From: Escherichia phage vB_EcoM_ESCO45
Reading direction: 5' to 3' (one strand)
Sequence record: OM386661.1
DNA length: 64,000 bases
Positions within the stretch are counted from its first letter, which is position 1. Every line of letters starts with the position of its first letter. Under the pieces are notes generated by a model. It was not told the DNA's origin. It ran no database searches and saw nothing but the letters and a program-made list of their open reading frames with translations. Position numbers and translations under genes: made by a program. This document shows positions 4,660 to 6,402 of the stretch, piece after piece.

Positions 4660-5217
4660 ATGAGATATTTGAAGTATGCTTCATGGATTTTCCTAGCTTT
4701 ACTAGAACCATTTGCAGCAACCCTAGCAGTCATCTTAGCACCTTTCGTGGTTCCATTCTACAGTGAGAAGAAAGGGCATCTACCTTTTGGATTCAGATGG
4801 ATGGAGACCTATGACAACCCGATTGATGGTGATGAAGGCCACGTTAAAAGATGGGCTAAGATTAGAAAGATTGGTAAGCTGGGTGTCTACATGCAGAGAG
4901 TTGGATGGCTCTGGAGAAACAAAGCTTATAACTTCTCTTACCATGTATTAGGAAGAGATGTAAAAGATGTTACTAAGTGGAAAGGTAATATCAACGTAAG
5001 TTCTGACCCTGAAGATAATCAGACTGGTTATCTCCTAATGTGGAATAGCAATGCTTGGGGATTATTCGCTTTTATCCCATCAATTAAAATCTTTGGTAAA
5101 CAGTTTTACTGGAGAATTTATATTGGATGGAAACTAAAAAGCGTTGTCCCAGAAGAAAGAGCATTCTCAAGGGAAAGAGTTATGTTGGCATTCTTTATTC
5201 ATCCACTGAGAAAGTAA
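4660..5217 (+). CDS. hypothetical membrane protein embedded in tRNA array
   Basis: AAGAGG RBS; N-terminal hydrophobic helix, Trp-rich soluble domain; flanked both sides by tRNA genes. Confidence 0.5.
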   Translation: MRYLKYASWIFLALLEPFAATLAVILAPFVVPFYSEKKGHLPFGFRWMETYDNPIDGDEGHVKRWAKIRKIGKLGVYMQRVGWLWRNKAYNFSYHVLGRDVKDVTKWKGNINVSSDPEDNQTGYLLMWNSNAWGLFAFIPSIKIFGKQFYWRIYIGWKLKSVVPEERAFSRERVMLAFFIHPLRK

Positions 5218-5225
5218 AGATTTAA

Positions 5226-5301
5226 AGGGGATTAGTTTACAAGGTTAAAACCTCGGTCTTTGAAATCGAAGAAGTTGGTTCAATTCCAACATCCCCCGCC
5301 A
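5226..5301 (+). tRNA. tRNA-Gln (anticodon TTG)
   Basis: Acceptor (A)GGGGAT/ATCCCCC, arm TCGGT-CTTTGAA-ATCGA, T-arm GTTGG-TTCAATT-CCAAC, G73-CCA. Confidence 0.55.
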
Positions 5302-5303
5302 AT

Positions 5304-5382
5304 GCTCCATTACTCCAATTGGCAGAGAGGCCAGACTTAAAATCTGTGTTATGTATCGGTTCGAATCCGATATGGAGTACCA
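5304..5382 (+). tRNA. tRNA with anticodon TAA (Leu-type anticodon, 7-nt variable loop)
   Basis: Acceptor GCTCCAT/ATGGAGT, D-loop AATTGGCAG, loop CTTAAAA, T-arm ATCGG-TTCGAAT-CCGAT, A73-CCA. Confidence 0.5.
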
Positions 5383-5386
5383 AACT

Positions 5387-5462
5387 AGCGGTATAGCATA
5401 ACTGGCAATGCAACAGTCTCTGAAGCTGTCCTATTAAGGTTCAAATCCTTATGCCGCTGCCA
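5387..5462 (+). tRNA. tRNA-Gln (anticodon CTG)
   Basis: Canonical fold: D-stem GCAT/ATGC, arm ACAGT-CTCTGAA-GCTGT, T-arm TAAGG-TTCAAAT-CCTTA, G73-CCA. Confidence 0.55.
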
Positions 5463-5493
5463 CTTCTAAGGGTTCTTACGAGAGTCCTTAAAT

Positions 5494-5569
5494 GTGGCCT
5501 TATCATAAAGGGTAATGACCCATGCTGTGAACATGGTCTATACGGGTTCGACTCCCGTAGGTCACCCCA
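5494..5569 (+). tRNA. tRNA-His (anticodon GTG)
   Basis: Acceptor GTGGCCT/AGGTCAC, arm CCATG-CTGTGAA-CATGG, T-arm ACGGG-TTCGACT-CCCGT, C73-CCA. Confidence 0.65.
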
Positions 5570-5575
5570 ATTTAT

Positions 5576-5651
5576 AGTCCAAGTAGCTTATATGGTTAAA
5601 GCGTGTGTCTGAAAAACATGAGAAGAGGGTTCAAATCCCACTGGACTACCA
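5576..5651 (+). tRNA. tRNA-Phe (anticodon GAA)
   Basis: Loop CTGAAAA, T-loop TTCAAAT, A73-CCA; overlaps the GTG start proposed by the ORF track at 5605. Confidence 0.55.
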
Positions 5652-5667
5652 ATTTCAAAGGTGCTTA

Positions 5668-6402
5668 ATGAAAGAGATGACAGAACAAGGTAAGGAGATT
5701 TTTAATCTCTTAAAAACCGGTAGAGGGTTTTCTAACCCACTTATTACTGGTGCAGCAGTTCTCGGTGGAACCGTAGCTGCCTCTACATCACTTGTAAGCT
5801 CTATTAGCTCTGTAACAGACCCTACAATGCAGGAGAAGCTTGTTGCTGCTGGACTCACAACAGTCCTTCTAAACAGCTTTACAACAAGCCTTACAAGCAC
5901 TACAGCAACTACTAAGACCCTAACAGACTACGGTCAAAAATCTATTGATGAGTTTTCATCACGTATGCAGGTAGCAAAGGGATACTCCAATGTTATGGGT
6001 GCAGCAGGAGAACAAGTTGGTTGTACACCATTTAGTGGTATTATGGGTGTTGCTACAGAGTATGGTCAGCAAGCTATTGACATGATTAACAGCACACTAG
6101 ACAGCGTTAACGGTGTGTTAAGTGACTTACAAGACGCTATTGATGGAGGTCTTGAGACTGTTTCTGATTTAGCTAATCAGGCTGTTAGTAAGATTAATGA
6201 AGGTATTTCAAAGATTACAGCTTATGCAGATGAAGTTGTGCAGATGATTGAAGAAGAAGCTGCCCTTATTGCAGAGTACCTTAAAACGAATATCAATGGG
6301 TTCTTAGCAGGTATCTTACCAGACTGGTTTGATGATGCTTGTAAAACTGGTGTGATTGATACTATTGCAACACCAGAAATGAAGAGCGCATTACAGAGAT
6401 AA
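5668..6402 (+). CDS. hypothetical protein embedded in tRNA array (start trimmed to internal ATG)
   Basis: Track ORF 5605..6402 begins with GTG inside tRNA-Phe; first in-frame ATG (MKEMTEQ) follows an AAGG RBS; Ser/Thr-rich segment, hydrophobic stretch, acidic C-terminal half. Confidence 0.45.
   Translation: MKEMTEQGKEIFNLLKTGRGFSNPLITGAAVLGGTVAASTSLVSSISSVTDPTMQEKLVAAGLTTVLLNSFTTSLTSTTATTKTLTDYGQKSIDEFSSRMQVAKGYSNVMGAAGEQVGCTPFSGIMGVATEYGQQAIDMINSTLDSVNGVLSDLQDAIDGGLETVSDLANQAVSKINEGISKITAYADEVVQMIEEEAALIAEYLKTNINGFLAGILPDWFDDACKTGVIDTIATPEMKSALQR

Follow-up and report, generated by a model that had tools for sequence, protein, structure and literature searches.

A 64,000-nucleotide (nt) stretch of Escherichia phage vB_EcoM_ESCO45 (sequence record OM386661.1), referred to here as the window, contains two protein-coding genes inside an array of tRNA genes. 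The best overall explanation, to which an even chance of being right can be given, is that the first open reading frame (ORF1) encodes a holin-type lysis protein and the second (ORF2) a virion-associated protein, both of them fixed and co-transcribed with the tRNAs. The window belongs to a Felix O1-type myovirus of the genus Felixounavirus; positions 2300-8700 are 97.6% identical to Escherichia phage Alf5 and 96.8% identical to Salmonella phage Felix O1, and are covered to at least 80% by 204 phage records. A first-pass annotation of this DNA had placed two same-strand protein genes within the tRNA array, and the ORF listing confirmed their coordinates and lengths (aa, amino acids), with ARAGORN and Rfam locating the tRNAs:

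2364..6577, + strand: tRNA array of 18 tRNA genes, with ORF1 and ORF2 inside (ARAGORN; Rfam)
4660..5217, + strand: ORF1, 185 aa, ATG start; Felix O1 ORF48 (NP_944875.1); Pfam DUF7338; putative holin-type lysis protein
5668..6402, + strand: ORF2, 244 aa from ATG; Felix O1 ORF49 (NP_944879.1); Pfam DUF7217; acidic all-helical bundle

Both proteins belong to described families. ORF1 matched Pfam DUF7338 (PF24027) over residues 1-184 (E=1.5e-61, 207.7 bits with a cut-off of 27) and phrog_2143 (E=9.7e-81), and ORF2 matched Pfam DUF7217 (PF23854) over its full length (E=1.1e-86, 290.8 bits with a cut-off of 29) and phrog_2114 (E=3.2e-110). At least 80% of the protein is found in 572 phage records for ORF1 and in 577 for ORF2. 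In annotated relatives, both are labelled 'hypothetical protein' or 'Phage conserved protein', apart from the labels 'holin' for ORF1 and 'membrane protein' for ORF2. Compared with 22 distinct orthologous sequences each, the ratio of nonsynonymous to synonymous substitution rates (dN/dS) was 0.02-0.06 for ORF1 and 0.08-0.19 for ORF2, and no stop codons were found. The unusual location between tRNAs is the only point in favour of spurious frames, a possibility excluded, with a negligible residual probability, by the Pfam matches (E<=1e-61), the dN/dS values (0.02-0.19), the 0 disrupted orthologs out of 22 for each gene and the confident AlphaFold2 (AF2) folds. Absent or disrupted homologs, the sign of spurious frames according to the first-pass annotation, were clearly not what was found.

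Concerning their distribution, virtually every Felixounavirus, Suspvirus and Citrobacter relative carries both ORFs, and a divergent Hafnia Zyzzx-like phage retains the pair in its array (87% identity for ORF1 and 22% for ORF2). This synteny comparison speaks against the variable cargo that had been considered, since the two genes are fixed in those groups and the pair recurs in the Hafnia phage. The Kolesnikvirus array lacks ORF1 and carries ORF2 directly after the last tRNA, before a small ORF and the large terminase gene (TerL). The earlier remark that neither protein has a recognisable catalytic motif agrees with the Pfam, PDB profile and NCBIfam searches, where no known catalytic domain was found in either of them; NCBIfam gave no matches and the sequence-profile search of PDB nothing significant.

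The function of ORF1 was approached through the gene neighbourhoods of DUF7338 at 78 viral-contig loci. An endolysin, holin or spanin gene lies beside DUF7338 in at least eight independent lineages. DUF7338 follows a GH19 endolysin gene with gaps of 15-23 nt in two lineages (L067 and L072 clusters), it precedes a Phage_lysozyme gene directly (L064) or after a gene for an 89-aa protein (L089), and it is followed by GTA_holin_3TM and a GH108 endolysin (L080) or by Phage_holin_4_1 and a lysozyme-like gene (12 loci of the L077 cluster). In bacterial genomes, including prophages, only 8 DUF7338 loci were found among 185,579 species, and the six analysable ones (prophages) are flanked by endolysins, Rz-like spanins and tail fibres. 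The lysis adjacency is far beyond chance because a random gene would lie within two genes of an endolysin in a few percent of cases, as a rough estimate. The endolysin adjacency of the T4-like copies in tRNA regions was set aside as uninformative, as the e-like lysozyme gene is on the opposite strand at a distance of 7-9 kb, the normal T4 layout.

The best single argument for a holin-type role of DUF7338 is found in the T4-like Aeromonas phage PX29. In T4, the holin gene t fills the slot between 38 and asiA. In PX29, a gp38-like gene is followed by DUF7338, Phage_lysozyme and an 81-aa ORF with a transmembrane domain (TMD) and a coiled coil, and then by asiA on the other strand; the DUF7338 gene sits exactly where T4 has t, and the endolysin gene comes next. 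No T homolog was found in the complete 222-kb PX29 genome (best tblastn E=2.2, single-sequence query); elsewhere, such homologs can be traced from T4 as far as T5 (about 1e-14), and 43 Aeromonas phage records contain one. PX29 retains the spanins PseT.3/PseT.2, rIII and rIIA/B, and its array of 25 annotated tRNAs does not contain DUF7338. From this gene order, it looks like the known holin has been replaced by DUF7338 at the same locus.

The predicted structure of ORF1 is consistent with this role. The protein has one strong transmembrane (TM) segment at residues ~7-33 (Kyte-Doolittle 2.1), and its AF2 model (predicted local distance difference test, pLDDT, 93.9) shows a helix at residues 2-33 and an alpha/beta domain of ~150 aa, which is basic (isoelectric point, pI, about 9.3) and whose fold has no known relative. 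An acidic residue (D/E16) is present in the TM helix of 30 of the 33 DUF7338 members considered, and the charges flanking the helix (family mean of +1.5 on the N side vs +0.3 on the C side) favour an N-in orientation. Hence, ORF1 is probably a single-pass inner-membrane protein with N-in/C-out topology. Being a small inner-membrane protein with at least one TM domain, it agrees with what is expected of a holin, and the class III layout (one TMD, N-in/C-out, large periplasmic domain) is also that predicted for ORF1. The T4 holin T has the same general layout, with ~190-220 aa, one N-terminal TM helix, predicted N-in/C-out topology and a large globular periplasmic domain. Nevertheless, the resemblance is not one of descent, and homology of ORF1 to T (Phage_holin_T) was rejected with an hhalign probability of 0.1%.

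Taken together, these data make a role of ORF1 in lysis rather probable, and the narrower proposal of a hole-forming holin comes a little short of an even chance. ORF1 would build up in the inner membrane and, once triggered, would allow a soluble endolysin (of the Felix O1 gp35 type, encoded elsewhere) to reach the cell wall; where a canonical holin co-occurs, DUF7338 may act as an additional holin or influence the timing. The array is upstream of the late structural module and has the same orientation. The Texas A&M annotators independently described the ortholog of phage Mushroom as a 'class-III holin, 1 TMD, N-in, C-out', solely from its topology (PMC4392139). The lysis genes of Felix O1-type phages are scattered, with the endolysin gene elsewhere (PMC4319497), and no other holin has been identified in them (PMC3185647 section 2.8).

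On the other hand, several observations weigh against a hole-forming ORF1. It does not adjoin an endolysin gene in the window phage, where it lies between tRNAs, and the linkage expected of a holin gene is that of its homologs in at least eight independent lineages and in prophages. The charged hydrophilic C-terminal tail of holins is lacking, as ORF1 ends in …MLAFFIHPLRK, the last beta-strand of the globular domain; T4 T is also atypical in this respect. Thirteen residues, polar and aromatic, are invariant in the whole family (including T50, D52, R86, N87, Y90, R152 and K158), which is unusual for holins. Moreover, the lack of T in PX29 depends on one single-sequence tblastn. DUF7338 is found beside canonical holins (L077, L080), alongside other small multi-TMD proteins (phiR1-37, L067, L064) and together with a bona fide T holin in the T4-like phages Margaery and vB_Ecl_id4496; therefore, it cannot be the sole holin throughout the family. 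Finally, Felix O1 ORF48 was assigned to the 5-min class by reverse transcription PCR (RT-PCR), which is atypical for a holin, in a timing table that is unreliable (PMC3185647), and the lysis and membrane genes of Bas63 are mostly non-essential according to the PhageMaP preprint.

Some of these observations would suit a protein that takes part in lysis but does not form the hole. It could be a timing factor of the antiholin kind, comparable to T4 RI with respect to T, or a helper acting on the envelope, with a basic periplasmic domain that attaches to a further lysis protein or to some anionic component of the envelope; the two variants together are considered rather unlikely. A canonical holin in the same cassette (Phage_holin_4_1 in L077, GTA_holin_3TM in L080), the small 2-TMD holin-like ORFs adjoining DUF7338 in phiR1-37 and L067, and the T holin co-occurring in T4-like genomes would all leave room for such a protein, the conserved soluble domain with its invariant residues suggests a specific binding or catalytic site, and the early RT-PCR class would fit a regulator. 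T4 RI is about 97 aa long, has a SAR (signal-anchor-release) domain and is specific for T. Like the role proposed here, it involves a membrane-tethered periplasmic domain acting on lysis timing, and an RI-like role could explain the DUF7338 genes adjoining canonical holins. Unlike the setting of RI, PX29 carries DUF7338 in the t slot with no T-type holin in the genome to be regulated. Furthermore, L064, L089 and PX29 have no other obvious holin, only short single-TMD coiled-coil i-spanin-like ORFs, and the Felix O1-type phages have no other identified holin, as mentioned above. These cases favour the holin-type reading of ORF1. An early envelope protein acting outside lysis, for example in superinfection exclusion or in the masking of receptors or lipopolysaccharide, is improbable. 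Its position near tail-fibre and lysis genes would then be the common placement of moron-like genes, and in several lineages the upstream neighbour is in fact a tail-fibre, collar or fibre-assembly gene (DUF4376, Collar, gp38-like). Early expression in the Felix O1 RT-PCR, the location of the T4-like copies in early/middle hyperplastic regions near tRNAs and the generally reported non-essentiality of Bas63 membrane genes go in the same direction. Nevertheless, the adjacency to lysis genes in at least eight lineages includes cases without an intervening tail-fibre gene (L067, L072), and exclusion or conversion genes are usually common in bacterial genomes, whereas DUF7338 is restricted there to the 8 loci indicated above.

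The recurrence of DUF7338 next to tRNAs also deserves consideration. All 23 loci with at least 79% identity to ORF1 are embedded in tRNA arrays, and 24 of the 25 T4-like loci (56-63% identity) have a same-strand tRNA 70-1100 bp 5' of DUF7338, five T4-like loci being within arrays of 18-24 tRNAs. In Av-05 and the Zyzzx-like phage, DUF7338 is also located in arrays, with different flanking tRNAs, and in the Otagovirus phiPsa374 (25% identity) it starts 20 nt after a tRNA-Gln, within an array of 20 tRNAs. Conversely, around 30 loci with 42% identity or less have no tRNA within 10 kb. A function of ORF1 and ORF2 tied to the tRNAs, such as guarding or exploiting phage tRNAs against host anticodon nucleases, could be read from the array-borne cases (Felixounavirus, the Hafnia phage, Av-05, phiPsa374 and the T4-like loci) and from the Ro60-like anti-defence gene just 5' of the array. 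It is very improbable in view of those distant loci without tRNAs, of PX29, which keeps DUF7338 at the lysis locus despite its own 25-tRNA array, and of the Ackermannviridae homologs of ORF2, which are not near tRNAs; in addition, it is hard to see how a membrane protein facing the periplasm would reach tRNA. Shared ancestry within the Felix-like supergroup, together with horizontal transfer among enterobacterial phages, accounts better for the linkage. In fact, the Felix-like and T4-like copies of DUF7338 are 56-63% identical and the core proteins of the two lineages are far less alike; therefore, horizontal exchange between co-infecting enterobacterial phages is likely. The tRNA regions are known as hot spots of exchange driven by homing endonucleases, and HNH genes are present within the Felix O1 array.

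As for ORF2, two start codons come into question. From the GTG at 5605 the protein would have 265 aa, and this start was rejected because the frame overlaps tRNA-Phe, the extension is found in no homolog and Suspvirus has a stop codon in it. All homologs begin at the equivalent of the ATG at 5668, including those of Kolesnikvirus (44% identical) and Ackermannviridae (27-30%), so the internal ATG with its ribosome-binding site (RBS), already preferred in the first-pass annotation, was the right choice. The AF2 model (pLDDT 91) is an all-helical soluble bundle with a pI of 4.3, whose fold resembles amphipathic bundles of the apolipophorin/HeLo-like type (Apolipophorin-III, HeLo-like and MLKL-type were compared), and two cysteines (C119, C225) are invariant in the family. 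The only borderline hydrophobic window (residues 25-43, Kyte-Doolittle 1.62), rich in Gly/Ala/Ser/Thr, is that of the Felix-type protein, the stretch being polar in the Ackermannviridae DUF7217 homologs. ORF2 as an integral membrane protein was therefore discarded, with no conserved TM segment, a soluble model and a low pI; thus, of the hydrophobic segments previously attributed to both proteins, only that of ORF1 was retained. According to the model, ORF2 is a soluble acidic helical-bundle protein common to Ounavirinae and Ackermannviridae. It was also considered as a tail tape measure protein (TMP) and rejected, as it has 244 aa and its gene is upstream of the terminase, whereas a TMP is a long protein scaled to the tail and encoded between tail chaperones and baseplate; the PHROG TMP matches are weak (E 2e-6 to 1e-3) and cover helical segments only. 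The proposed TMP of Felix O1 is gp67, of 80 kDa (PMC3185647).

By analogy with its relatives, the most likely identity of ORF2 is that of a scarce protein associated with the virion, be it internal, ejected or involved in assembly. The 'unknown structural protein' of LIMEstone1 (ORF129) and ViI shows full-length homology to ORF2 (26-30% identity, profile E about 1e-90), and proteins of this type share with ORF2 the size and the invariant residues, the two cysteines included. LIMEstone1 ORF129 (25.03 kDa, two genes from gp3) was detected by mass spectrometry (MS) in purified virions, with a stated ViI counterpart, and, according to the LIMEstone authors, all of their unknown structural proteins are matched by structural ones in the ViI virion (PMC3296691). 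In Ackermannviridae the homologous gene lies between the head genes and gp3, and in Felixounavirus and Kolesnikvirus the ORF2 gene is just 5' of the small ORF and TerL. The two settings also differ, since the Ackermannviridae DUF7217 gene is in a structural/replication region and not near tRNAs. For the window phage itself, we infer a virion location of ORF2. This, together with the evidence on ORF1, makes the host-interaction or accessory function suggested at first too vague, as the data point to lysis for ORF1 and to virion association for ORF2.

The virion association of ORF2 also has points against it. The LIMEstone1 ORF129 detection amounts to 2 peptides and 18% coverage (PMC3296691), and the ortholog of phage VpaE1, ORF47, is still a 'hypothetical protein' after MS of the virion and is not flagged as structural in Table S1. 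For Felix O1, a virion band of 51 kDa was assigned to 'gp49', predicted at 25.6 kDa, and the shotgun list does not include gp49 (PMC3185647), which makes the assignment ambiguous. The proposal of a '51 kDa gp49, possible sheath' clashes with the predicted mass and with synteny; gp63 (48.9 kDa) was probably meant, and the band was not used as evidence. It can also be noted that 51 kDa would correspond to a gp49 dimer and that the family has two invariant cysteines. With these points in mind, a non-structural intracellular protein, early and possibly membrane-peripheral or host-directed, was weighed, the virion detections being then carry-over contamination; this is somewhat unlikely. It would agree with the 5-min RT-PCR class in Felix O1 (PMC3185647), with transcription together with the tRNAs, the structural operon starting past the terminator, and with the amphipathic-bundle fold, besides the VpaE1 result. 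The two LIMEstone peptides come from a list in which DNA ligase, PhoH and gp44 appear as well (PMC3296691). Nevertheless, two Ounavirinae genera keep the gene immediately 5' of the packaging/head module and Ackermannviridae have it inside the structural region, the hydrophobic stretch is not conserved, and the stated ViI virion counterparts (PMC3296691) favour the virion-associated reading.

Regarding expression, the elements around the two genes are the following:

2308..2337, + strand: promoter-like site TTGACA-18-TAAAGT with TG extension (consensus scan, 10/12 matches), just 5' of the first tRNA
4563..4640, + strand: tRNA-Leu(caa), 19 nt 5' of the ORF1 start codon
4646..4651, + strand: ORF1 Shine-Dalgarno AAGAGG, 8 nt 5' of ATG 4660 (read from the sequence)
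5226..5301, + strand: tRNA-Gln(ttg), 8-nt gap from the ORF1 stop codon (ARAGORN)
5576..5651, + strand: tRNA-Phe(gaa), 16 nt 5' of the ORF2 ATG; a GTG-extended ORF would overlap it
5657..5663, + strand: ORF2 Shine-Dalgarno-like AAAGGTG, 4 nt 5' of ATG 5668 (read from the sequence)
6404..6496, + strand: tRNA-Ser(gct), 1-nt gap from the ORF2 stop codon
6502-6577, + strand: tRNA-Cys, last in the array (ARAGORN)
6615..6674, + strand: intrinsic terminator, long GC-closed hairpin then U6, 3' of tRNA-Cys (folding)
6740..6763, + strand: second terminator-like hairpin with T6, 5' of the small ORF and the terminase gene

The stop codons are at 5215-5217 for ORF1 and at 6400-6402 for ORF2, and the record of phage Mushroom annotates an RBS at the matching places for both genes. 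Co-transcription of ORF1 and ORF2 with the tRNAs is well supported by the geometry, because the 19 and 16 nt upstream of them are too short for a promoter, and the hairpin and U6 at 6615-6674 (z = -6.7 on folding) end the array transcript, as read from the sequence. The co-transcription predicted in the first-pass annotation is thus borne out by these gaps and by the terminator. The site at 2308..2337, whose sequence is conserved in relatives, is the candidate start of the transcript, and the consensus scan found no promoter-like site on the + strand from ~3624 to ORF1. In Felix O1, transcripts of ORF48 and ORF49 were found by RT-PCR, maximal at 5 min (PMC3185647 Table 3); this timing is unreliable because the 5-min class also holds the major capsid gene 58.

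Both ORFs would be expressed from one long precursor RNA shared with the tRNAs. Only 1-19 nt separate them from the neighbouring tRNAs and therefore the mRNAs can arise from the precursor alone; according to standard tRNA maturation, 5' and 3' processing (RNase P, 3' trimming) should set their ends. The 8-nt gap between the ORF1 stop codon and the tRNA is the same in 22 of the 23 Felix-like loci. A bolder version of the proposal makes DUF7338 a new and structurally unprecedented class of holin or lysis-control protein, whose gene came to lie inside a tRNA operon in many T4-like phages and in those of the Felix O1-like, Av-05-like and Otagovirus groups. The amount and lifetime of its mRNA would then be set by tRNA processing, with RNase P cutting 8 nt past the stop codon, and the lysis clock would be coupled to the tRNA expression programme of the phage; this version has a low probability. 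At the other junction, an RNase P cut at tRNA-Ser would leave the ORF2 mRNA ending 1 nt past its stop codon, and a terminating ribosome and RNase P would contend for the same nucleotides at 6400-6404. Upstream of ORF1, 9 of the 23 Felix-like loci (L017, L018, L021 and L022 among them) have ~256 nt between the ARAGORN tRNA and the ORF1 homolog, vs 19 nt in the window; in L017, the sole such locus with its neighbours listed, the nearest tRNA across this spacer is a tRNA-Arg.

It is not new for protein genes to lie within phage tRNA clusters, as in the tRNA regions of T4, with segB, and of T5. As in those clusters and in the HNH genes of Felix O1, ORF1 and ORF2 are same-strand ORFs between tRNAs; the difference is that the known embedded genes are mostly mobile homing endonucleases that vary among isolates, whereas ORF1 and ORF2 are fixed, under purifying selection and not nucleases. 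It was also known that both are annotated in hundreds of genomes and belong to Pfam and PHROG families, and the 'holin' label of ORF1 is already in GenBank. What is added here is comparative evidence, obtained independently, in favour of DUF7338 acting in lysis, the apparent replacement of T in PX29 by DUF7338, a family unrelated to T and without a known fold relative, the repeated association of DUF7338 with tRNA arrays in several lineages, and the correction of ORF2 from a membrane protein to a conserved helical and probably virion-associated protein. Felix O1 is a classic phage for Salmonella typing and biocontrol whose holin has never been identified experimentally. If DUF7338 is that holin, a missing piece of lysis in these widely used phages would be in place, and holins would gain a new, non-homologous family that has a conserved periplasmic domain and extends to T4-like, jumbo and Pseudomonas phages. 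ORF2, if virion-associated, would be a candidate internal or ejected protein common to Ounavirinae and Ackermannviridae, and the 1-19 nt tRNA-mRNA junctions offer a simple natural system for the effects of tRNA processing on embedded genes. Current concepts do not change, and the main gain is a likely role for two 'hypothetical proteins'.

Some minor observations concern the surroundings of DUF7217. Domain fusions (proteins of 555-620 aa) were considered and rejected, as their partners carry no Pfam domain and the fused forms are absent from sequenced phages. A hint of such forms comes from phrog_289 ('GTP-binding domain', 500 positions), whose C-terminal half matches ORF2. In Ackermannviridae (Salmonella phage dinky, L005 5289-5753 and 6721-7332), a small protein of the YspA/SLOG family ('GTP-binding domain') is encoded two genes 5' of DUF7217, and a divergently oriented gene for a DUF7424 'lipoprotein' also flanks it. 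In the window, the region 6800-7000 (+ strand) encodes a 66-aa acidic coiled-coil-like protein (phrog_4397, Felix O1 ORF51). Felixounavirus and Kolesnikvirus both keep it in this place, after the array terminator and ahead of the large terminase gene. The small terminase of Felix O1 was not identified (PMC3185647 section 2.6), and this protein is a possible packaging partner.

The array itself is reduced, with 18 tRNAs in the window vs 24-26 in relatives (affected positions 2440-2571, 2966-3724 and 4145-4152). An internal deletion of ~46 nt turned tRNA-Glu into a fused remnant, tRNA-Asp is gone unlike in relatives, tRNA-Lys(ctt) is likewise missing, and a deletion takes out tRNA-Lys(ttt), tRNA-Met, tRNA-Ile and the -35 box of the internal promoter P45 described in Felix O1; some deletion end-points are inside tRNA genes. 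The arrays of relatives vary in HNH endonuclease genes and individual tRNAs; in the Felix O1 array, the HNH endonuclease ORFs 44, 45 and 47 are present in part of the isolates. The Rfam scan of positions 1-7200 returned only tRNAs, and 16 of the 18 ARAGORN tRNAs reach the gathering score. The tRNA-Met(cat) at 2571-2647 and the tRNA-Tyr(gta) at 2879-2966 are below it; their Felix O1 counterparts are a Met tRNA with a low Cove score (28.9) and a Tyr pseudo-tRNA (PMC3185647).

Just 5' of the array, a terminator and a candidate promoter overlap (2210-2246). The hairpin at 2210-2241, with a 12-bp stem, corresponds to t42/t43, a bidirectional terminator of Felix O1, and its loop and stem contain a perfect TTGACA -35 box (promoter-like site 2218-2246). 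The preceding gene (784-2199, + strand) encodes a 471-aa protein that corresponds to Felix O1 ORF42, 'RNA-binding/vWFA protein' (Pfam DUF2828 and DUF7788). Its ortholog in Bas63 is gp130, which according to the PhageMaP preprint is Ro60-like and counters the 'ppl' defence system; the preprint also speculates that some of the array 'tRNAs' may be Y-RNA-like. PX29 also has an 'RNA-binding protein' gene (L102 36470-37900) near its tRNA array.

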